From Escherichia phage IME178, in sequence record NC_104190.1: 64,000 nt of DNA; one strand, written 5' to 3'. A model generated the notes under the pieces. The model was not told the DNA's origin. It worked only from the letters and a program-made list of their open reading frames with translations, and ran no database searches. Both the position numbers and the translations under genes were made by a program. Each line of letters begins with the position of its first letter. Position 1 is the first letter of the stretch. This document shows positions 4,015 to 63,631 of the stretch, piece after piece.

Positions 4015-4547
4015 TAATAAGTAACCAATTCCTGTACAAATCGCAGGCTGTTATCACTGTTTGCGCCAGTTGCGTAAACTAAACGAGTAGATTCATAATT
4101 GTAATCTAGAATCGTATTATCCAGATGTACATCTGCCTCTAGTTTTTGATTACTAAAGATTGTGGATACGAAAGCACTTTCAATATGTCCATGAATATAC
4201 ATTTCATACAGTAATGTTGCGCCACCTAAAACCACTGTCTGTTGATCTTTTAAGAATGTAGGCAATGTATCCCCAATCTTAGAAATTGGGGTGTAAATAT
4301 CATGCGTAATATCGTCTGGCAGTGGACGATCAGCACGAATAAATAGGTCAGAAGCTCCAATCATACGTTCCCTAACGGCGTATGGAAGAGCTAAATAAGT
4401 ACCAGCACCAATGATGATGTTATCCGGATTCAACATGTCCAGTTGAGAATAGAAAGCATCTAGTTCTTCTTTGAAGGAACCCCATGGAAGTTTACCGTGG
4501 AGGCCGAACTCCCCATTCGGCCCAACTGCATACATTGCTGTAATCAT
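4014..4547 (-). CDS. frd: dihydrofolate reductase
   Basis: 177 aa; [19 protein letters not shown] resembles DHFR lPW...D..F motif; located between thyA and nrdB as in T5-family phages. Confidence 0.75.
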
Positions 4548-5689
4548 AAGAAATCTCCAAATTCATTACCCAGATCTTTCAGAGTATCAGTAGAGGTTTC
4601 GGTGACTTGACCTACACGATATGCTGCACCAATCTGGATTTCTTGTGGAGCAGGCTGTAAAGAAGTGGTATCCAACCAGTTCATGATCCACGGAATAGGG
4701 TTTTTGGTGATTACTGGTAAATGACTAGGCCATTCTACACCAATGTGCATAAATGCATTACGCCCCACAAAGTACAGATATTCTTCTAGAAGTTCTGCAT
4801 TCAAGCCAATCAGACTACGACCTTTGAAAATGAAATGACCCCATTCAATTTCAGTTTTCAAAGTTTTCAGGAGCTGTGCTGGTGCTTTAGCCACTGCTTC
4901 ATCTACCAGATCTTTGTCAAATTGCTGAAACATAATCTGGATGATTGCTTTGGACATCTGAGTGTGCAGAGCTTCATCTTTAGCGATTAATTGCAGATTT
5001 TTAGCAATACCTTGCAGAATATCGTTCTCTGCTAATGCAAAGGTACATGCAAAGGATGCGTAAAACTGCATTGCTTCCAGACCATAGATCGCAAAGTAAG
5101 CGTCTAATAGTTTAGCCTGAGTTTCACGTTTAACTTCAGGGAACTCAGTTTCTGGGTATGTATTGTCGCCACGATGATCGCGTACTGCGATGAAATACTG
5201 ACCTAACTGGTACAGTTCATCGAATAGTTCAACAGAATCAGCGATACGTGCGAATGCTTCTTGGTTTTTGGTTACAGAATCAATAAATTCTGCTGGATCA
5301 GTCAGCACATTACGAATAATATTGCTATAAGCACGACTATGTAGGTCTTCAAAATAGCTCCACTGTTTGAGCATACCTTCCAATTCTGGACGACTTACAA
5401 GCGGCATAATAGCCGCTTCAGGGGCACGACTGATAAAGGAATCAGTTTGAGTTTGCCATGCTAAGTTCAGGAGTGTAATTTCCTGAATTTCTCGTGGGAG
5501 ATTAGGCCATTGTTTCTTATCTGCTTCCAGACTGATTTCAGTTTCAGTCCAAAATTGAGAGCGTTGCAGAAGTGCCAGACGTTCTAGTTCTGGGTGTGCT
5601 ACACGTACGTAATCTGCGATACCGAGAGAATCTCCCAGGAAAAGGTCAGCGTTAGTATGATCCCAATTCAGGTTTAGTAAAGTAGTCAT
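4544..5689 (-). CDS. nrdB: ribonucleotide reductase class I small (beta) subunit
   Basis: 381 aa ferritin-like di-iron protein pattern; adjacent to nrdA. Confidence 0.9.
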   Translation of the reverse strand: MTTLLNLNWDHTNADLFLGDSLGIADYVRVAHPELERLALLQRSQFWTETEISLEADKKQWPNLPREIQEITLLNLAWQTQTDSFISRAPEAAIMPLVSRPELEGMLKQWSYFEDLHSRAYSNIIRNVLTDPAEFIDSVTKNQEAFARIADSVELFDELYQLGQYFIAVRDHRGDNTYPETEFPEVKRETQAKLLDAYFAIYGLEAMQFYASFACTFALAENDILQGIAKNLQLIAKDEALHTQMSKAIIQIMFQQFDKDLVDEAVAKAPAQLLKTLKTEIEWGHFIFKGRSLIGLNAELLEEYLYFVGRNAFMHIGVEWPSHLPVITKNPIPWIMNWLDTTSLQPAPQEIQIGAAYRVGQVTETSTDTLKDLGNEFGDFL

Positions 5690-5710
5690 TGATTTTCCTC
5701 TTTCTCACTA

Positions 5711-5739
5711 TTTCAGGAATATTATAGCAAATCTGGTAG
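5711..5739 (-). promoter_or_regulatory. sigma70-type promoter for nrdB (minus strand)
   Basis: minus-strand TTGCTA-17 nt-TATAAT upstream of nrdB start. Confidence 0.45.
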
Positions 5740-5758
5740 CGATTAGCAAGTAAAATTT

Positions 5759-5788
5759 CAAAGAAAAAGGAGACCCGAAGATCTCCTT
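5759..5788 (-). terminator. hairpin with flanking T-tracts (terminator/attenuator) between nrdA and nrdB
   Basis: aaggaga-cccgaaga-tctcctt stem-loop, T-rich on both sides. Confidence 0.4.
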
Positions 5789-5795
5789 GTTTTTA

Positions 5796-8126
5796 TTAAA
5801 TAGTACAACCGCCTGATGCACAACCGGCTGCTTCCTCTCCTGCACCTCCACCATTTGCGGTATTGAAGTTAGCATAATAGAAAGTTTTCCACCCGTATTT
5901 AACAGCAGTCATGAAATCACGAACTACTACTGGGCCAGGAATAACTTCATTCTCAAACTTGGTGTAGTCGTAGTACATATTCGTACTGATAGACTGACTG
6001 AAGAATTTCTGCATAGTTGCTACCCATTTGATCAACTCGATACGATCTACATCATAAGCCAGTTTATAGCTCATTAACGTTTCCCAATCGGTTGCACCCG
6101 GGGCAATTGCAATTACTTTATTTACTGCACTACCCTTGATAGATACAATCTTACGAGGCGGTTCAATAGAGTTAGTAACACCTAACAGAACAGAAGAACT
6201 TTCTCCCGGCATCTGAGCAGTCAGAACAGAGTTACGCATACCGTATTTCAGAATATCTGCACGCAGAGACTCCCAATCCATTTCTAGACCTACGGATACC
6301 AGTTCATCAACAGTTTTCTTATACGTGTCGATTACTAGAATTCCTTTAGATGGTTTAGTACGATCAAACCACTCACATGCGCCCTGTTCTTTAGCCAGGC
6401 GTACAGAGGCTTTATGCAGGAAGTAAGACAGTTTTTCAGCCTCACGGTGAATCCAGTTACGGGCTTCAATACCTTCGTAAGCCAGACCTTCTGCTGCCAT
6501 TGCACCCGCTGCGTTCATCAGGCCAATACCAACATTACGACGTTTCTTAGCCGTATATTCCATAGTTGGGAACGGATAATCCTGAATTTCAATAATTGTG
6601 TCAACAAATTTCAGAAGGATGTAGCAAGTTTTTTCCCACTCAGCCAGAGATTCCATGCGTCCAAGTACAACACCACCTAAGTTACATAGAGATACTTCAC
6701 CAATATCCTCCGGCTTCATTTGATCAAGCTGCTCTTTTGTCTTATACAGCTCTGTAATGTGGTGGAATGGACGTGTAGGCTGAGTAATTTCAACACAAAG
6801 GTTTGTCATACGGATCGGATCAAGGAAGTTACCGTGACGGTTAGATTCCCCAATGTGGTGAGCATACATACGTCCTGTTTCCATCCTGATACGTAGCCAA
6901 GTATCTAGGATTTCTTTTGCAGAGACCCTAGGAGCTGCTGGAACTGTTTTTCCTTCGTGGTCGATCTTTGTAAGAGATGCCACACGTTTCTCCGCTGCCA
7001 CGTAGATTTCTTCAAATTTAGCCTCGTCATCACTATAAAACGCTTCATGAACTTCTGGAGCATAGAAGTATGACATTAGCGTAATATCTTCGTTTTTAAG
7101 ATAACGTTTTAACAAAAGATTGTTAAAGCTCAGAGAATAATCCATCTTATCGATTTTATTCTCATCTGTAGCACGTTGTTGCTTAACCTGCATTAATTGA
7201 ATGATTTCAGGGTCGAAGTATGGATAAGACACTGTAGCAGAACCACCACGAGTTTGCTGGGTATTGGCCTTTACTGAGCGATCAATGTGTCGATAATATG
7301 GCAGTTTTCCGGAATGCGGGAATGCCCCATTTCGCACCGGATCAGCAATTGATCGGCTTTCAAGATGATACCCGATTCCCGCTCTGGCTGCAACCATTTT
7401 GAAGACGATGTGCTCGGCGGTGTCGATTGAATCCAACGTGTCAGTGGAATCCACGAGGCAGCAACTAGCAAATCCACGATCACTAGAGCGCAGACCAACC
7501 AGTGGCGGCGTAGGAACGTTGATTTTGTGGAGTGACATTGCGTTGTAGAGGTCGATTGCATCTAGAATTGTCCAGTTAGGTTGAGATAGCATCGCCATTG
7601 CCATACCCATGTAGGCGAATTGCGGGGTTTCATAAATTTCACCAGTAGCTATATTACGACGGGAATACTTATCAAAGAACTGCTTCAGCCCACCACTAGT
7701 AAAAAGACGGTCACGATCATGGTCGATAACCTGATTCAGAGCTTCAAATTGCTCATCTGTAATCCATGCACTCATATCTTCCCATGCACCTACGCTAACC
7801 ATGTGATCATGGAAGAAGCGTAAAGAAGGTGGTTCGAAAGAATCATAAAGGCGTTTACGCATTTGCGCAAGACGTAATTCCTTTGCTGGCACATCGTATG
7901 CTGGATTATCTTTGATAAGACTTTCAGCAGCTTTAATTAATGCATCCATCAGAGTGTCGGAATCTACAACCCCTTTAGGTAGGGTTTTTTGAGCAGCCAT
8001 AGTAATGGCTGACCAGCTTACATCAACTGTTTTGCAACCATACTCTGCCCAACCATTGAGTTTTTCAGGAGCAAAGTCTTCTACAGTACCGTCACGTTTA
8101 ATTACTTTTTCAATGCGATGGCTCAT
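5796..8126 (-). CDS. nrdA: ribonucleotide reductase class I large (alpha) subunit
   Basis: ATP-cone start (MSHRIEKVIKRDG), C-terminal redox cysteines (CASGGC); start set at ATG 8126 with RBS aaggaaag because the longer ORF to 8231 would read through a terminator hairpin. Confidence 0.9.
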   Translation of the reverse strand: MSHRIEKVIKRDGTVEDFAPEKLNGWAEYGCKTVDVSWSAITMAAQKTLPKGVVDSDTLMDALIKAAESLIKDNPAYDVPAKELRLAQMRKRLYDSFEPPSLRFFHDHMVSVGAWEDMSAWITDEQFEALNQVIDHDRDRLFTSGGLKQFFDKYSRRNIATGEIYETPQFAYMGMAMAMLSQPNWTILDAIDLYNAMSLHKINVPTPPLVGLRSSDRGFASCCLVDSTDTLDSIDTAEHIVFKMVAARAGIGYHLESRSIADPVRNGAFPHSGKLPYYRHIDRSVKANTQQTRGGSATVSYPYFDPEIIQLMQVKQQRATDENKIDKMDYSLSFNNLLLKRYLKNEDITLMSYFYAPEVHEAFYSDDEAKFEEIYVAAEKRVASLTKIDHEGKTVPAAPRVSAKEILDTWLRIRMETGRMYAHHIGESNRHGNFLDPIRMTNLCVEITQPTRPFHHITELYKTKEQLDQMKPEDIGEVSLCNLGGVVLGRMESLAEWEKTCYILLKFVDTIIEIQDYPFPTMEYTAKKRRNVGIGLMNAAGAMAAEGLAYEGIEARNWIHREAEKLSYFLHKASVRLAKEQGACEWFDRTKPSKGILVIDTYKKTVDELVSVGLEMDWESLRADILKYGMRNSVLTAQMPGESSSVLLGVTNSIEPPRKIVSIKGSAVNKVIAIAPGATDWETLMSYKLAYDVDRIELIKWVATMQKFFSQSISTNMYYDYTKFENEVIPGPVVVRDFMTAVKYGWKTFYYANFNTANGGGAGEEAAGCASGGCTI

Positions 8127-8225
8127 TTGGCTTTCCTTTTTATAGTTATCAGGATTTAAGGAATATTCTACTTTATTATCGGTCATTAGGCAAATAAAAT
8201 TTTCTGATAGAAAAGGCCCGAGTAT

Positions 8226-8262
8226 TTTCATACCCAGGCCCTGTATATTACCAGTCTAGCTT
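8226..8262 (-). terminator. rho-independent terminator
   Basis: 11-bp stem (ggcctgggtat / atactcgggcc, two G-U) with GAAA loop followed by TTTTCTATC on minus strand. Confidence 0.5.
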
Positions 8263-8268
8263 TTTAGC

Positions 8269-8490
8269 TTATTCAATTACTTTAGCTCTAGCTACTTCTT
8301 TTAATAGAATATCTATGGAGGTGCTCAGCTCGTTATAATTGAATGGTTTATTTGGATTTGAGGTTACAATTTTCCACGCTAGGGTTGTCTTAGGACTTTC
8401 TTCCCCTTCCTTACGTGTAATCATATTAGCAGCACTCAGTGAAGTACGATGTATTTTAGTTTTACGGCTCAGATGAACGACGTTTCCCAT
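8269..8490 (-). CDS. hypothetical protein
   Basis: 73-aa version starting at ATG 8490 (RBS gaaggtg) immediately after phoH stop; longer 96-aa ORF overlaps phoH. Confidence 0.35.
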   Translation of the reverse strand: MGNVVHLSRKTKIHRTSLSAANMITRKEGEESPKTTLAWKIVTSNPNKPFNYNELSTSIDILLKEVARAKVIE

Positions 8491-8491
8491 A

Positions 8492-9244
8492 TTACACCTT
8501 CCCCATGTCTTTAAAGATGTCATAGAATGCTTTAGACTCAACAGAACGAACGTTATCAATCAATTCGATCATTGAGAATGGGGCATTTTCGTATTTCTCA
8601 TAGACTTCCATAAGGAGTGCTAGACCTGAGTCACCTTTAATGTCTTTCTGAGCTATATCTCCGCAGATAATTAAACGGCAGTCTTGCCCTACACGAGTTA
8701 GAAGACAAATCATTGCCTCAACGGAAATATTCTGAGCTTCATCGACAATTACATAGGAGTTGTTGAAAGTTCTGCCACGAGCATGTTCGACAGCCAAAAA
8801 TTTAATTTTCTGACGTTCGACGTATCCCTTATAGGCATGATCGCCGATGGCCCATTTCATACCATCAGCTATTGGCTCCAACCAAGGCTCTAGCTTTTCT
8901 GCTAGATCACCAGGAAGCATACCAAGAGACTTACCTAGAGGTTCATTAGGACGTACGAGGATCACTTGCTCAATATCTGAGTGAATGTCTACGAGTTCCT
9001 GAGCTGCAAGAACGGACGGGATAAAGGTTTTACCAGTACCTGGCTCACCAATACCCACAGTCACTGTGTTGTTCTTGATCATATTGATATATGATTTTTG
9101 CTCGCGGTTTTTACCTACTAGGGATTTAGCAACTGGGTTAGCGTAATCATTAGAAAAATCAGCCTGAATTACGTTATTCTCATACTTGTTGCCACGCTTT
9201 CTTGAACCATTGCGGTTCTCTCTTTTTTGACGTGCTTTTCCCAT
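8492..9244 (-). CDS. phoH: PhoH-like ATPase
   Basis: Walker A GEPGTGKT, Walker B VIVDEAQN; start set at MGKARQ (RBS aggag). Confidence 0.85.
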   Translation of the reverse strand: MGKARQKRENRNGSRKRGNKYENNVIQADFSNDYANPVAKSLVGKNREQKSYINMIKNNTVTVGIGEPGTGKTFIPSVLAAQELVDIHSDIEQVILVRPNEPLGKSLGMLPGDLAEKLEPWLEPIADGMKWAIGDHAYKGYVERQKIKFLAVEHARGRTFNNSYVIVDEAQNISVEAMICLLTRVGQDCRLIICGDIAQKDIKGDSGLALLMEVYEKYENAPFSMIELIDNVRSVESKAFYDIFKDMGKV

Positions 9245-9538
9245 AAATAACACTCCTATAGTGTACTTCGCTAACAGAGGATCAACAAAAAGATCTTGTT
9301 TATCAACTTACAAATATATTATACCAATATATACAGTAAAAAGCAACTACAATTTTAAATAAGCCTATGATATTGCATTTAAATAAAAAATTTGCTTGCT
9401 TTTAACGTGAGATGTGTGATACTAGATAATCATTTTATATCGCGTGCACGAGTGCGTGATTATACAATTTTTAATAGAAATTGGCAAATAAAATTTTTTG
9501 ACTCAGATCATGTTACAGAACTTTATAGTAAAATATTG

Positions 9539-14354: not shown

Positions 14355-14396
14355 CCGTACTCAAGACCAATGATAGCACCATCCGGAAAATTTTAC

Positions 14397-14425
14397 TTGC
14401 AGGATGCCCAAAATCTTGATATAAT
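14397..14425 (+). promoter_or_regulatory. T5-type early promoter
   Basis: TTGCAG-17-TATAAT with AT-rich leader TTGAATTGAGAGA. Confidence 0.5.
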
Positions 14426-17715: not shown

Positions 17716-17940
17716 AAAATGGGAAACAAGGAAGTTTCCAGTAAAAGAACGTAAAGTTCCTGTTTACGACACTTCGGAAAAGCTATGTAGGGTGGTACCG
17801 CATAGACTAGCTGGCATCCCTAACATATCCGAGTGGTTACTTAAACAACGGAAAACTAACGTGTCTCTTCGCGTAGGCTTTGAGTTAGATAAAGTCTATG
17901 CTGAACTTGCTTCTTTGCTCAAGGAATCGTAAAAATTTAT

Positions 17941-17969
17941 TTGCATAGTGCAAAAAATTTCTGTATAAT
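17941..17969 (+). promoter_or_regulatory. P_N25-like strong early promoter
   Basis: TTGCAT-17-TATAAT followed by AGATTCATAAATTTGAGAGAGGAGTTTAAAT-ATG, near-identical to the T5 P_N25 promoter/leader as I recall it. Confidence 0.7.
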
Positions 17970-18961: not shown

Positions 18962-18981
18962 CAGTTATCGAAAAATTTCAG

Positions 18982-19010
18982 TTGCTTAATCCTATAATTC
19001 TTGATATAAT
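18982..19010 (+). promoter_or_regulatory. T5-type early promoter
   Basis: TTGCTT-17-TATAAT. Confidence 0.5.
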
Positions 19011-22979: not shown

Positions 22980-23012
22980 TAAGGGGAGGGGGCTATGCTC
23001 CTTCCCCTTTTT
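22980..23012 (+). terminator. terminator-like hairpin
   Basis: aaggggagg...ccttcccctt stem followed by TTTTT. Confidence 0.4.
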
Positions 23013-23045
23013 GCATTTAGAAGGCACGAAAGCGTGCAAAGGAGA

Positions 23046-24518
23046 ATGACCTTGTTTAACGTGCAAGCTGTAGTGTTGAAGATGCTTCTAGCTTCTGAAC
23101 AGAAGCAAATAGCATTGGAAACATTCTCAAAACTGCATAAAGATCATTTTAATGACGCTTTCTCCTCAATTTACCAAGCCGTCCAGAATTATTATAAAAA
23201 ATATAACACAATGCCGTCCATTGACGCACTGATGCTTGAAGCTAATAGGAACGCCCGCCTTTCTCAAGCTCTAGTCGTCTTAGCTAACACTCAAATTCCA
23301 GAAGTGAGCATGGAACAGGCACTTGAAGTCCTAGAGGCTGAATATACACAGGATTTATTCCTGAAGCTTCTAGAAACAGACGTGCTTCAAGATTTAACAA
23401 TGCTGGATCAGGGAGAAATTCTCAACCGAGTTGCCTCCCTTCACTTAAAATTAGAAGAGAAAGTAACGAATACTGGAAAAGTATTCAACGCAGATAACAT
23501 GCGTATTTTCCAGAGAGAAGAAGATACCAAACTGAACCTAATCGCTCTTGGTATTTGTAATGAGTTTGACGCTCAAATTGGTTTAGCTCGCACAGAAACG
23601 TTACTGCTTGGTGGTTGGCGTGGTACTGGTAAATCCATTATCTGTTCAAACATACAGGTTCAGCAATATTTGAATGGAGATATTGCTCCATACTTCTCAA
23701 TTGAGATGAAAGAACATGAAGTATTTAGACGTAATCTAGCCATGTTAGCTGGTGTATCCGCACTAGCAATGCGTAATAATACTCTAGAAGGTGCAGCTCT
23801 GCTGAGATTAGCCAGAACTAGAGCTAGAATGTTTAATGGCGGTGAAGAGCTTTTCGATAACTTCGTTAAACAGTACACAATGGCTAAGATGAGTGATTTC
23901 TACGATATGGAGAGTAAACTAATAGAAGGGTATGAACTACATACTCCTATGATTATCGTTTATGACCCTGAACTGTCCATTACAACAGTTGATGTAGAAT
24001 TAAATAAATTAGTTGCTAGATATGGTGATAAAGTTACAGTAGCTTTATTGGACTATATTAACCAAACCCGACTTCCAGACTCTAAAACCATTGATATGTA
24101 TGACTGGAAAGAACAGATGGTTGTTAGCTCGTCTTTCAAATCTATCTGCCAGAAACATAACGTGGCTGGCGTAGCTCCTTACCAGATCGATCAAGATGGT
24201 AGAACACGTATGTCAAAGGGTATTCTTGATTCCGCAGACATGGCTGCTAATCTTAATGCTGCAAAAGCTGATAATGGTCAAGGTGCTATTATGTTTGACT
24301 TCGTTAAGACTCGTTCTTCTGATAGCGTGAAGTTTATGCCTAAAATGAACTGGGAAACCTTGCGGATGGATAACACTACCAACCTAGCGATGGAAGATAT
24401 ATCTCAAATGGAAGCTGAGTTCGTTATCCCTATTGAGAAGGATAAGCCGGCTCAACCTAAACGTGCTAAGAAAGACAAAACCGAAAATTCAACAGGTGAA
24501 CAGGCCAGCGATATATGA
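23046..24518 (+). CDS. DnaB-like replicative helicase
   Basis: Walker A GGWRGTGKS, FSIEM (DnaB FSLEM-like), LDYINQTR; start set at ATG 23046 (RBS aaaggaga) instead of 22995. Confidence 0.7.
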   Translation: MTLFNVQAVVLKMLLASEQKQIALETFSKLHKDHFNDAFSSIYQAVQNYYKKYNTMPSIDALMLEANRNARLSQALVVLANTQIPEVSMEQALEVLEAEYTQDLFLKLLETDVLQDLTMLDQGEILNRVASLHLKLEEKVTNTGKVFNADNMRIFQREEDTKLNLIALGICNEFDAQIGLARTETLLLGGWRGTGKSIICSNIQVQQYLNGDIAPYFSIEMKEHEVFRRNLAMLAGVSALAMRNNTLEGAALLRLARTRARMFNGGEELFDNFVKQYTMAKMSDFYDMESKLIEGYELHTPMIIVYDPELSITTVDVELNKLVARYGDKVTVALLDYINQTRLPDSKTIDMYDWKEQMVVSSSFKSICQKHNVAGVAPYQIDQDGRTRMSKGILDSADMAANLNAAKADNGQGAIMFDFVKTRSSDSVKFMPKMNWETLRMDNTTNLAMEDISQMEAEFVIPIEKDKPAQPKRAKKDKTENSTGEQASDI

Positions 24519-30276: not shown

Positions 30277-30348
30277 ATACACATAAATTTGAGAGAGAAA
30301 GTTTCGGATTGATAAGAAAGTCCGAAGCAGAAAAATAAAAAATTTTAG

Positions 30349-30378
30349 TTGCTAAATTCTCTCGAAATCTAGTATAAT
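30349..30378 (+). promoter_or_regulatory. T5-type early promoter
   Basis: TTGCTA-18-TATAAT then conserved leader ATACATAAATTCGAGGAG. Confidence 0.5.
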
Positions 30379-58245: not shown

Positions 58246-59459
58246 TCTTTATCTCCCTCGGTGGAACCTTGAGGTCTACCACCTTCTTGACCGGATACGC
58301 CTGTTGCAGAACCAGCGACGTTAGCAGGAATACGAATCTTATTCATCTGCTCATCATCTAAAGGCTCAAGGTTCAGCTCTAAACGAGCTTCGTTACCAGT
58401 TATAATACCATTATTAACCAATGAGGTTAAATGTTTAGCCTCAGATTCTTTATCTGGTGTTAATGCAGCTACTTCCTTAGTATTAGGAGTAATCTTATAA
58501 CCAAAAAAGAAAGTAAGAGAACTAGTCAGCTTGTTCAGCATAGGGATGATAGTCATGTAATAGAACAGTTCGATGTTTGGTCGAATGTTCGCGTTATTAC
58601 CACCATCAAGTAGCACTTGCGGAACACCAAAGGCTAGACAGATAGATTTATTAAATCCTTCGATGTCTTCCTTAAAGTCTAGATCTTTAAAAGAGGATAT
58701 TTGGGAGTACGGTTTAGCTTTCATACCACCATCTAGAATCAGGACAGAAGACTGACCCGTACTAGGATTATAATCGAGTTGTAATTCTTCTTGTTTACGC
58801 TCACGCAATTTCTTGTTCAGAATTTCATCCGTCTCAAGAATAAGACCAATCACGGTTCCGTTATCGAGAAACTTCTCTTTAAAGTTAAGCATCTTGGAAC
58901 GCTTCTCAAGAGAATCAATAACAGTAGCAACACGAGATTGTCCAGAAATTTGAGAATTTGTGCCACACACGTAACTGTTATCCTTTATAAAGATAATCTC
59001 ATCTACGCGATAGTCTATCTGGTTATTAAATATAAATTTTTTGATAAACTTATTGGCATCTGCCTCTACTTGCATTAGTGCAGCAGGGACATGATAAAGT
59101 GCTGTGCCATCCCAATAGATGTATGCACAACCTTCAAAAAGTAGGTCAGTGACTACAAGTCTACGGAATGTGCTTATATCCATGAATGGATTAGGTCGTA
59201 CATTTAAGAGAGTGTCTAGAGTCTTTGCCTTGATGCCATTGGCATACGTGACAATATTATATTTATCTCCGACAGTATAAGAACACTCCGCCGCACTATC
59301 TATAACCATATTAGCAGTTCTATTGAGAATCTCAATTTTACTGTAGGCTTGTCCAGTGGTAAAAGGCTTACGGTTAGTGCGATGACTAACTGGTTCCATG
59401 TCTCTTATAATACGTTGACCCGGATTTAGCTTTTCAGTAATCCAGCTTTTAAAACCCAT
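58242..59459 (-). CDS. portal protein (T5 pb7-like)
   Basis: 405 aa; size and position between terminase and capsid genes. Confidence 0.6.
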   Translation of the reverse strand: MGFKSWITEKLNPGQRIIRDMEPVSHRTNRKPFTTGQAYSKIEILNRTANMVIDSAAECSYTVGDKYNIVTYANGIKAKTLDTLLNVRPNPFMDISTFRRLVVTDLLFEGCAYIYWDGTALYHVPAALMQVEADANKFIKKFIFNNQIDYRVDEIIFIKDNSYVCGTNSQISGQSRVATVIDSLEKRSKMLNFKEKFLDNGTVIGLILETDEILNKKLRERKQEELQLDYNPSTGQSSVLILDGGMKAKPYSQISSFKDLDFKEDIEGFNKSICLAFGVPQVLLDGGNNANIRPNIELFYYMTIIPMLNKLTSSLTFFFGYKITPNTKEVAALTPDKESEAKHLTSLVNNGIITGNEARLELNLEPLDDEQMNKIRIPANVAGSATGVSGQEGGRPQGSTEGDKE

Positions 59460-59896
59460 TATAAGAACCTTGCGAATCCTGATTTTGTTTCAGTCTTGAC
59501 TTGTGTCTTTTCTTGAGGATTCTGTAATTTGTCTTTCTGCTTTTGAACCCACACTTTTTGCTTATTAGCAGAAAATAAAGGAGGTTCTTTTGTGTAAACC
59601 TTATGTAATAATTGGTGATGGTGTACACAAAGGGTAACAGTGTCTTCTACTAGCTCATGCCTATATCGATCATAGAATGCCGTCCTATTTGAAAGGACTA
59701 TTTCTTCGTCAGTGAAATCCAATTGGAGTTCTTTAGCAAATTTTTTAACTAGTAGAGACACCGTATGGTAATGATGAAGCTCTAATTCTTCAGCACAACC
59801 GCAGATAGCACATTGAGAGTCTTTTTTATATTGACTTTTTATTCCGTCTCTCATAAGGGATATAGCATCGCGTTTATATTTTATATTGCTTGCCAT
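59459..59896 (-). CDS. HNH endonuclease
   Basis: CAICGC...LELHHYH...CVHHHQLLH; start set at MASNIKY (RBS gaggagaa); stop shares TAATG with portal start. Confidence 0.65.
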   Translation of the reverse strand: MASNIKYKRDAISLMRDGIKSQYKKDSQCAICGCAEELELHHYHTVSLLVKKFAKELQLDFTDEEIVLSNRTAFYDRYRHELVEDTVTLCVHHHQLLHKVYTKEPPLFSANKQKVWVQKQKDKLQNPQEKTQVKTETKSGFARFL

Positions 59897-59960: not shown

Positions 59961-59997
59961 AAAATGCAGGAATGGGATACCAACTGAGTAGTATCCC
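59961..59997 (-). terminator. terminator-like hairpin after terminase gene
   Basis: gggatac-caactgagta-gtatccc with T-rich tract on minus strand. Confidence 0.4.
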
Positions 59998-60010
59998 TTC
60001 CTATACTTAT

Positions 60011-63577: not shown

Positions 63578-63602
63578 ATAATCTCCTATTATAAAAATGT
63601 AT

Positions 63603-63631
63603 TTGCTTTCATCCCTCTATTTTGCTATAAT
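63603..63631 (+). promoter_or_regulatory. T5-type early promoter for llp-like gene
   Basis: TTGCTT-17-TATAAT then AGATTCATAAATTAGAAATGGAGAG leader. Confidence 0.55.

Follow-up and report, generated by a model that had tools for sequence, protein, structure and literature searches.

We find that nrdA of Escherichia phage IME178, a Tequintavirus (T5-like) with ~98% identity to many isolates, most likely starts at ATG 8126 and encodes a 776-aa protein, while rejection of the 811-aa model obtained by longest-ORF calling is strongly supported, as that model opens within the hairpin of a putative terminator. All positions refer to the window, i.e. the whole stretch of 64,000 nucleotides analysed from sequence record NC_104190.1. 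ATG 8126-8124 encodes MSHRIEK and lies 35 codons downstream of the longest-ORF start. Upstream of nrdA sits a gene for a small DUF7430 protein, whose TAA stop (8271-8269) is separated from ATG 8126 by a gap of 144 nt on the minus strand. We consider it highly probable that this gap forms a standard T5 regulatory cassette. The phoH/DUF7430 transcript would be ended by an intrinsic terminator (hairpin 8242-8213 plus T-run), a T5 early-type sigma-70 promoter would follow and give rise to a new transcript from about 8157, and ribosomes bound at AGGA (8137-8134) would start translation from ATG 8126. The resulting 776-aa class Ia NrdA would enter its ATP-cone six residues from the start.

The Pfam match of the DUF7430 gene (PF24207) covers residues 24-95 of its 96-aa longest ORF, and the CDS of phage Lindwurm projects onto it at 8490-8269. 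The gene for the NrdB partner adjoins nrdA (ORF 4544-5689, PF00268 at 3.8e-36). An Rfam scan of the whole window returned zero known RNA families; thus, a known riboswitch or leader does not explain the conservation 5' of nrdA. The features are compiled in Table 1.

Table 1 Features of the nrdA upstream region and of two further genes with over-extended longest ORFs.
Feature	Position	Strand	Details
nrdA longest ORF	5796..8231	-	811 aa, MKILGPFLSENF...
nrdA CDS, most likely translated form	5796..8126	-	776 aa, MSHRIEKVIKRDG...; class Ia RNR alpha subunit
ATP-cone domain	7854..8108	-	PF03477, residues 7-91 of the 776-aa form
Shine-Dalgarno AGGA	8134..8137	-	within AAAAGGAAAG; RBS in the Lindwurm annotation
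Predicted transcription start	8156..8158	-	7-9 nt past the -10, ahead of conserved AAATCCTGA
Putative -10 hexamer TAGAAT	8165..8170	-	17-nt spacer; T5 itself has TAAACT
Alternative in-frame ATG	8184..8186	-	796-aa form, MTDNKVEY...; 2 nt past the -35 hexamer
Putative -35 hexamer TTGCCT	8188..8193	-	promoter scan and family alignment
A/T-rich element	8194..8203	-	AAAATTTTAT; upstream of the -35; typical of T5 early promoters
Putative terminator T-run	8211..8214	-	UUUU then CUAUC; read in the sequence; short
Putative terminator hairpin	8213..8242	-	13-bp stem AGGGCCUGGGUAU / AUACUCGGGCCUU, GAAA loop 8229-8226
Spurious ATG opening the 811-aa ORF	8229..8231	-	within hairpin stem and loop
DUF7430 small-protein gene	8269..8490	-	73 aa, MGNVVHL...; upstream of nrdA
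Helicase-gene hairpin and T-run	22981..23009	+	loop holds ATG 22995; 13-bp stem
Nicking endonuclease-gene hairpin (putative terminase terminator)	59967..60003	-	loop holds TTG 59983; z = -3.6

The hairpin begins 27 nt past the DUF7430 stop and is built from a 5' arm at 8242-8230 and a 3' arm at 8225-8213; together with the T-run at 8214-8211 (CCUUUUCUAUC) it spans 8211-8242. Its predicted folding energy is -20.4 kcal/mol compared to -7.8 ± 2.0 for shuffled sequences (z = -6.2), none of 200 shuffles being as good, and z is -5.0 in an 81-nt context. ATG 8231-8229 consists of the final two bases of the 5' arm and the first base of the loop, and codons 2-7 of the 811-aa ORF (KILGPF) run through the rest of the loop and the 3' arm into the T-tract. 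This confirms the claim of an earlier note that the 811-aa ORF opens with codons of a terminator stem and T-tract. The note had placed this terminator at 8226-8262; the hairpin exists, but these coordinates are displaced by ~15-20 nt, position 8262 being close to the DUF7430 stop. The 811-aa ORF is the longest one because chance has left no in-frame stop across the putative terminator and promoter.

Five other lineages, namely Epseptimavirus, Sugarlandvirus, Novosibvirus, Priunavirus and the unassigned Enterobacter phage KKP_3711, have a hairpin with a T-run at this position, and the sequences compared include Proteus phage Stubb and Providencia phage PSTCR5. In Epseptimavirus, a compensated double change converts a G-C pair into A-U. 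The hairpin sequence is unrelated in Sugarlandvirus, KKP_3711 and the Proteus and Providencia phages, its position being the same, and in every lineage a run of 4-6 T directly follows the hairpin. A simple consensus terminator scan did not list hairpin 8242-8213, presumably because the stem, when extended into the U's, leaves a tail with 4 T in 8. The case for a terminator is built on folding and on the comparison with relatives, in place of the consensus scan.

Downstream of the hairpin, we found the pattern of the T5 early promoter family, namely an A/T-rich block (AAAATTTNA) upstream of TTGCxx, 17 nt and TAnAnT. The 16-mer AAAATTTTATTTGCCT occurs in 9 copies in the window at ≤3 mismatches, compared to 2.4 expected and a count of 9 reached in 0 of 100 shuffles; in the family alignment, a TATAAT-like hexamer comes 17 nt after each copy. 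Eight of the copies lie elsewhere in the window, including one at 17931 that we take to resemble PN25, and by analogy with this copy (tataatAGATTCATAAATTTGAG) transcription of nrdA would start at 8156-8158. A sigma-70 scan gave 9 of 12 consensus matches at a spacer of 17 for the nrdA hexamers. The generic scan alone is not above chance (1 match versus 2.8 in shuffles), and what argues for the promoter is conservation together with the family-specific 16-mer. With 7 matches versus 4.0 expected, the downstream block TTAAATCCTGATAAC shows no significant repetition in the window. Among 31 unique sequences, positions 1, 2, 4 and 6 of the -10 hexamer are invariant, whereas positions 3 and 5 vary.

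The putative promoter shares with the T5 PN25/P25/P26 class the AAAATTTNATTTGC upstream block, the TTGCxx -35, the 17-nt spacer, the TAnAnT -10 and a TAAAT..TGA block past the start site. Early promoters of this class were reportedly characterised by Gentz and Bujard in 1985 as strong sigma-70 promoters. Unlike them, the nrdA promoter candidate has TAGAAT instead of TATAAT as its -10, and its discriminator (ATTCCTT) is rich in pyrimidines and differs from relative to relative. According to the available part of a study by Klimuk et al. 2020 (PMC7472727), T5 early promoters carry the discriminator motif ATATT; the window reads tagAATATTcc, the ATATT overlapping the end of the -10, and T5 reads aaCTATTtc. 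A subset of T5 promoters was validated there by primer extension, among which that part of the publication does not name an nrdA promoter.

The three in-frame starts differ in their predicted ribosome binding. Anti-Shine-Dalgarno pairing at ATG 8126 amounts to -5.6 kcal/mol with a 6-nt spacer, in support of the good RBS that had been proposed for this start. Such pairing is absent at ATG 8186 (+0.2 kcal/mol), and at ATG 8231 the sole Shine-Dalgarno-like pairing falls within the stem, at a spacing of zero. Moreover, AAGGA is conserved 6-7 nt 5' of ATG 8126 in all T5-like lineages, including Sugarlandvirus and KKP_3711.

Homology points to the same start. The nrdA product matches Ribonuc_red_lgC (PF02867, 1.2e-119, residues 255-786, full profile) and lgN (PF00317, 8.9e-12). 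Its translation contains an NxCxE motif (...MTNLCVEITQP...) and a C-terminal cysteine pair (...GCASGGCTI), which we take to be equivalent to N437/C439/E441 and C754/C759 of E. coli NrdA. In the N-terminal alignment, E. coli residue 7 falls on ORF residue 43, i.e. residue 8 of the 776-aa form. E. coli Met1 thus corresponds to about residue 37, while ATG 8126 is residue 36, so that both N-termini agree within one residue. With E. coli class Ia NrdA (e.g. PDB 1RLR, 2R1R), the ATP-cone, all-alpha and barrel domains align from E. coli residue 7, although overall similarity is modest and the phage ATP-cone has diverged. The ATP-cone, on which the earlier note had relied to place the start, is present but weak: its Pfam match (profile positions 2-87 of 88) reaches E = 1.3e-4 and 22.8 bits, below the 25.8-bit gathering score. 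With the 796-aa query, alignments to NrdAs of phages that are not T5-like begin no earlier than residues 19-28, and no homolog outside the T5-like group aligns to residues 1-35 of the 811-aa form, i.e. to an MKILGPFL-like extension.

Public nrdA records disagree with one another. Forms of 811, 796 and 776 aa are all present, and one protein cluster at 90% identity mixes the three N-termini. Of three GenBank T5 records, two (AY692264 among them) carry the 811-aa form, as do the RefSeq copy of one of these (T5.096 / YP_006924.1) and many isolates, and the exact 811-aa protein of the window is deposited as QYC97221.1 from phage IME178. The T5.096 ORF corresponds to the longest ORF of the window, and its model includes 35 codons that appear here as terminator, promoter and 5' UTR. 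The layout and the 776-aa start proposed here are those of T5 record AY587007 (gene rir1), in which a 'putative rho-independent terminator' maps to 8240-8215 and a 'putative early promoter T5P29' to 8209-8140. Likewise, the annotation of phage Lindwurm (OK143207) has a terminator at 8240-8209, an RBS at 8137-8134 and the CDS start at 8126; in both records these are predicted features. The start correction is an ordinary one and already known in some annotations. A literature search on T5 nrdA found no transcription start site map, transcriptome, 3'-end, ribosome profiling or N-terminal peptide data.

ATG 8186 is a third candidate, which the earlier note did not include and which is less cleanly rejected than the 811-aa form. 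As the true or an additional start, it would give, on transcripts reading through the terminator, a 796-aa NrdA whose ATP-cone is preceded by a tail of 20 residues (MTDNKVEYSLNPDNYKKESQ); ATG 8126 would then encode a methionine inside the protein or act as another initiation site. We regard this as unlikely, and ATG 8186 is probably not the nrdA start. In its favour, the 796-aa form is used in DaisyDussoix and in the 796-aa members of the protein cluster, and the ATG and its open frame are kept in all of the ~45 T5-like, Sugarlandvirus and KKP_3711 sequences examined. Roughly 520 T5-like records match this region. The sole indel seen between 8186 and 8126 is a frame-preserving one of 6 nt in KKP_3711, and a metagenome scan yielded 9 usable loci, all from already sampled lineages, with the frame broken in none. 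Against this, 11 of 16 other positions in the spacer and nearby are likewise invariant, so that ATG 8186 is not specially conserved. The KKP_3711 deletion shifts the codon phase of AAGGA but keeps its distance to ATG 8126. Furthermore, ATG 8186 lies 2 nt past the -35 hexamer and would hence be missing from transcripts that start at the conserved promoter.

The mode of substitution upstream of ATG 8126 also argues against translation from 8186. Over these 60 nt, parsimony steps are distributed over the codon positions as 22:13:27, while the 199 codons that follow show 88:59:406 (p = 3e-6 by Fisher's test). Relative to T5-type Tequintavirus (L010, L014-L016, L019, L020 and L025), the stretch is 87-88% identical with changes at all three codon positions and a translated peptide that is ~25% diverged, whereas identity is 95-96% in the adjacent 120 codons, where third positions take nearly all of the changes; ungapped identities are not meaningful for L039 or for the -82 to -61 block in lineages with 1-nt indels. 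T5 itself differs from IME178 at several positions of the intergenic sequence (87-88% over 60 nt), including the -10 hexamer. Compared with Sugarlandvirus, third-position identity is 65-70% in the stretch and 38-41% in the gene. Third positions are thus more conserved than in the gene, indicating constraint on DNA and not on protein.

The Proteus and Providencia relatives bear on the same question. Their NrdA is genuinely extended at the N-terminus by ~21 aa, and a strong RBS of its own precedes this extension. It contains FLKP or FLKKP, similar to the Y(S/F)LNP that the T5-like stretch gives on translation, and tblastn alignments of these proteins extend into the T5-like upstream sequence (Pectobacterium T5-like phages were absent among the matches listed). 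The NrdA of Aeromonas phage AhSzw-1 is without an extension. By a rough Karlin-Altschul estimate for this length, the FLNP/FLKP similarity has p ~0.1 and is thus treated neither as significant nor as an argument for a coding 8186 stretch.

It is similarly improbable that the chief role of the hairpin, in place of termination, is to stabilise or process the upstream mRNA at its 3' end, most nrdA expression then coming from read-through; in that case the start call stays the same. Such a role would suit the T-run of only four U's, which is interrupted, the consensus scan that did not call the hairpin, and the layout in the Proteus and Providencia phages, where hairpin, RBS and ATG follow each other without an evident promoter between. 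A terminator is favoured by the pairing of the hairpin with a T-run of 4-6 in every lineage, by the recognisable T5-family promoter that follows it in the T5-like lineages and by the two independent annotation teams (Lindwurm and AY587007) that called one. Given the short T-run, read-through transcripts that contain the upstream ATGs are plausible. It is very unlikely, though, that ATG 8186 acts on such transcripts as a second initiation site, its tail being a remnant or working counterpart of the Proteus/Providencia extension, with promoter use choosing between two isoforms. If this were true, the NrdA isoforms might differ in their allosteric behaviour.

Finally, the view that the 811-aa ORF is a real protein is already close to refuted: despite being the longest ATG-initiated ORF, being widely deposited and having an MKILGPFL peptide conserved within Tequintavirus, it has its start codon and Shine-Dalgarno-like pairing within a hairpin of -20 kcal/mol, and its N-terminus is without outside homologs. 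Indels of 1 nt in the A-run between hairpin and promoter disrupt the frame in two Tequintavirus relatives (L014 and L025), the NrdA proper of which is still 92-99% identical, and an in-frame stop at -75 closes it in Epseptimavirus, Sugarlandvirus and KKP_3711. All of these breaks fall between 8231 and 8186. In the leading peptide, the only change seen is I to M in L043; it replaces U-A by U-G in the hairpin, and the stem is kept.

The over-extension of nrdA recurs in the window. The helicase longest ORF, for which the same artefact had been suggested, starts at ATG 22995 in the loop of a hairpin (centroid -22.9 kcal/mol; MFE z = -2.6 for the 66-nt stretch), so this suggestion holds. The true start may be ATG 23046 or TTG 23052; the latter corresponds to the 488-aa helicase CDS of Lindwurm, and distant relatives align from residues 17-21. 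Over-extension also applies to the gene at 59983, which starts at a TTG in a hairpin loop, but the label 'HNH' given to it does not stand: the ORF has no Pfam match, and public annotation names it a nicking endonuclease. Its true start is ATG 59896, which follows GAGGAG with a predicted Shine-Dalgarno pairing of -9.3 kcal/mol at a spacer of 5, and the DaisyDussoix nicking endonuclease CDS maps to 59896-59459. Taken together, five cases checked in the window show a recurrent tendency of longest-ORF calls in T5-like genomes to extend across terminator hairpins.

The correction of the nrdA start matters mainly for curation and implies no new biology. The 35 extra N-terminal residues in RefSeq T5, AY692264, IME178 and many isolates would be translated from terminator, promoter and 5' UTR sequence. 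Because they sit directly on the regulatory ATP-cone, cloning and modelling of T5 NrdA require the correct N-terminus; this applies at present to studies of the DRT9 defence, from which mutations in nrdA and nrdB allow T5 and Bas37 to escape (PMC12483538).

Region 5700-8600 shares 97-98% identity with many genomes of Tequintavirus, the T5-like phages of E. coli and Salmonella in the family Demerecviridae, and 445 phage records match it. Here phoH (PF02562), a small DUF7430 gene, nrdA and nrdB (PF00268) all lie on the minus strand, and the nrdA ORF matches PF02867 (1.2e-119) and PF00317. Three in-frame ATG codons could open nrdA, of which ATG 8126 is very probably the start. Our data support the view that the 811-aa ORF arises artefactually, from a frame without stop codons across a terminator, promoter and RBS cassette.

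ATG 8231-8229 sits within AGGGCCUGGGUAU-GAAA-AUACUCGGGCCUU, a hairpin with a predicted fold of -20.4 kcal/mol compared to -7.8 +/- 2.0 for shuffled sequences (z = -6.2; equalled by 0 of 200 shuffles), and z = -5.0 for its 81-nt context. The earlier note had read the first codons of the 811-aa ORF as a terminator, and MKILGPF (residues 1-7) indeed translates the last part of the 5' arm, then loop and 3' arm, and finally the T-tract; its coordinates (8226-8262), however, were displaced 15-20 nt upstream of the true span, 8211-8242. A simple terminator scan did not call the hairpin, presumably because its tail holds just four T's after stem extension.

Our comparison took in 31 loci from IMG/VR, 9 from metagenomes and several GenBank records. 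Tequintavirus, Epseptimavirus, Sugarlandvirus, Enterobacter phage KKP_3711, Proteus phage Stubb and Providencia phage PSTCR5 all have a stable hairpin at the same position, with 4-6 T's after it. The Epseptimavirus stem carries a compensatory change from G-C to A-U, and the stem sequences of Sugarlandvirus, KKP_3711 and the Proteus and Providencia phages are unrelated. Position and structure are thus kept but the 'peptide' is not, which is the behaviour of a terminator and not of coding sequence. In two Tequintavirus loci from IMG/VR (L014 and L025), the A-run separating hairpin from promoter contains 1-nt indels; these disrupt the frame from the 8231-equivalent ATG, yet NrdA is still 92-99% identical. 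In Epseptimavirus, Sugarlandvirus and KKP_3711 the frame is closed by a stop 75 nt 5' of the 8126-equivalent ATG. These frame-breaking indels and stops, together with the conserved hairpin, make a start at ATG 8231 very improbable.

Features at the nrdA start and related sites
Feature	Position	Strand	Remark
Longest nrdA ORF	5796..8231	-	811 aa
Terminator hairpin	8242-8213	-	13-bp stem; GAAA loop 8229-8226
T-run after hairpin	8214-8211	-	read in sequence
ATG 8231 (811 aa)	8231	-	predicted 16S rRNA 3'-end pairing -5.6 kcal/mol; spacer 0 nt, bases within stem
Predicted sigma-70-type promoter	-35 TTGCCT 8193-8188; -10 TAGAAT 8170-8165	-	17-nt spacer
ATG 8186 (796 aa)	8186	-	predicted pairing +0.2 kcal/mol (none); spacer not applicable
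ATG 8126 (776 aa)	8126	-	predicted pairing -5.6 kcal/mol; spacer 6 nt
Other AAAATTTNANTTGCNN copies	2757-2772; 9341-9356; 9482-9497	-	
Other AAAATTTNANTTGCNN copies	14387-14402; 17931-17946; 18972-18987; 30339-30354; 63593-63608	+	
Terminase terminator hairpin	60003-59967	-	loop includes TTG 59983

A generic sigma-70 scan was by itself not above chance (1 match vs 2.8 expected). Allowing up to 3 mismatches, the window has 9 copies of the 16-mer AAAATTTTATTTGCCT where 2.4 are expected, and 0 of 100 shuffles attain 9; behind every copy come 17 nt and a TATAAT-like hexamer, and behind most a ATAAATTTGA-like block. Judged from these repeats, the predicted promoter ahead of nrdA clearly belongs to a family repeated in the window. 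Each of the eight other AAAATTTNANTTGCNN blocks, the upstream element of T5 early promoters, precedes 17 nt and TATAAT, and most have a ATAAATTTGA-like block and an RBS further along. The copy at 17931 is nearly the classical T5 PN25/P25 promoter, and that at 18972 resembles T5 P26.

Past the promoter follows AAAAGGAAAG with AGGA at 8137-8134, then ATG 8126 encoding MSHRIEKVIKRDG. Both this RBS and this start had been proposed earlier, and the start agrees with E. coli NrdA: residue 7 of its chains in solved structures (VTKRDG) aligns with ORF residue 43 (VIKRDG), which places E. coli Met1 near ORF residue 37, and ATG 8126 is residue 36. The ATP-cone, also proposed to mark the N-terminus, appears real though diverged: in the 776-aa form, residues 7-91 match positions 2-87/88 of the Pfam profile (E = 1.3e-4) at 22.8 bits, below the 25.8-bit gathering score. 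With the N-terminus of the 796-aa form as tblastn query, alignments to NrdA from unrelated phage groups begin no earlier than query residues 19-28. For T5 nrdA, a literature search turned up neither mapped transcript ends nor N-terminal protein data; termination, promoter activity, transcription start site and initiation codon are therefore inferred.

Initiation at ATG 8186, an in-frame codon that the earlier note overlooked (MTDNKVEYSLNPDNYKKESQ-MSHR...), is improbable, and would mostly yield a minor product of read-through transcripts. This ATG and its open frame are kept in all T5-like, Sugarlandvirus and KKP_3711 sequences seen, the sole indel within 8186-8126 among relatives is of 6 nt, and phage DaisyDussoix and other records use this start. 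However, the codon lacks a Shine-Dalgarno sequence and sits 2 nt past the -35 hexamer, and would therefore be absent from transcripts of the conserved promoter. Counted by codon position on a neighbour-joining tree (31 unique sequences), parsimony steps number 22:13:27 in the 60-nt stretch versus 88:59:406 in the 199 codons that follow (Fisher p = 3e-6, indicative only because the sequences are related and the region is short). In comparison with T5-type Tequintavirus, identity across the stretch is 87-88%, all codon positions change and the peptide diverges by ~25%, whereas the following 120 codons are 95-96% identical and differ nearly always at third positions. Third-position identity to Sugarlandvirus is 65-70% here compared with 38-41% in the gene, which points to constraint acting on the DNA itself. 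The invariant sites match promoter elements (-10 hexamer positions 1, 2, 4 and 6 and much of the spacer), and the variable ones lie either in the discriminator or in the interval from the AAATCCTGA block to the Shine-Dalgarno sequence. In KKP_3711, AAGGA is still 6 nt from the downstream ATG despite a 6-nt deletion altering codon phase.

The longer form finds some further favour in the Proteus and Providencia relatives, where a genuine ~21-aa extension precedes the ATP-cone of NrdA in Stubb (IMG/VR locus L027, 1400-1540; MDLTRFLKPEQPQTQLYNIKN-VRKRDG) and PSTCR5 (L035, 640-780; MAGVDHFLKKPATTTRLGNVQF-VRKRDG). Its FLKP or FLKKP resembles the Y(S/F)LNP (YFLNP) translated from the T5-like 5' UTR, but we roughly estimate p ~0.1 for this likeness, and NrdA of Aeromonas phage AhSzw-1 lacks any N-terminal extension. 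In both loci hairpin, strong RBS (AAGGAG) and ATG follow in succession, with no evident promoter in the interval and no other possible start.

Several relatives carry extra DNA in or beside nrdA (IMG/VR loci L025, L031 and L032; SelmaRatti, MZ501103; S124, MH370375; phage 2-3, MN197465). The L031 translation runs through an intein-like insert (CYSADTEV...), SelmaRatti nrdA is annotated as intein-containing, and in S124 and phage 2-3 a homing endonuclease gene immediately upstream of nrdA takes the place of the terminator; the nrdA of the window has neither such an insert nor such a neighbour. In Lindwurm, a second terminator is annotated directly past the nrdA stop and ahead of nrdB (mapping to about 5786-5760(-) of the window), and given this annotation the two genes may not be simply co-transcribed.

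Over-extension had also been proposed for the helicase ORF at 22995 (DnaB_C match), and its ATG forms part of the loop of a hairpin with a 13-bp stem, 22981-23009(+), after which comes a T-run. Alignments with distant relatives begin at residues 17-21. Lindwurm's 488-aa model starts at TTG 23052, 6 nt from AAGGAG, whereas ATG 23046 has essentially no spacer (~1 nt; 23039-23054(+)); the start is therefore ambiguous between the two. The 'HNH' ORF is likewise over-extended from TTG 59983; 59459-59896(-) has no Pfam match, HNH included, at E <= 0.01. In DaisyDussoix the 'nicking endonuclease' CDS starts at the equivalent of ATG 59896, preceded by GAGGAG. Public records name this ORF nicking endonuclease; its neighbours are the genes for the terminase large subunit and the portal, and a promoter of its own is predicted (TTTACA, 17 nt, TATACT). 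Pfam coverage and the Lindwurm models indicate that two further longest-ORF calls are too long, favouring ATG 8490 (73 aa) over TTG 8559 (96 aa) for DUF7430 (8269-8559(-)) and ATG 9244 (250 aa) over GTG 9253 (253 aa) for phoH (8492-9253(-)). The DUF7430 protein (8269-8490(-)) is named 'tail length tape measure protein' in several RefSeq/GenBank records (NC_005859 T5.097, NC_041899 FDH16_gp124, NC_019919 g089), which looks like a propagated misannotation of a ~52-73-aa early-region protein.

Public nrdA models differ in length. T5 AY587007 has 776 aa with a 'putative rho-independent terminator' and 'putative early promoter T5P29' (mapping to 8240-8215 and 8209-8140), and Lindwurm OK143207 has 776 aa with the start mapping to 8126, a terminator at 8240-8209 and an RBS at 8137-8134. 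RefSeq T5 NC_005859 (T5.096, YP_006924.1) and T5 AY692264 (T5p094) give 811 aa and DaisyDussoix MZ501058 796 aa, each with no other features. The 811-aa protein of the window is deposited with identical sequence as QYC97221.1 (Escherichia phage IME178), whose 90%-identity cluster mixes 811/812-, 796- and 776/775-aa forms. The 776-aa models show that the correction was already made in some records and has not spread to others. The revised nrdA start is an ordinary correction, already present in some annotations, and its value lies chiefly in curation.
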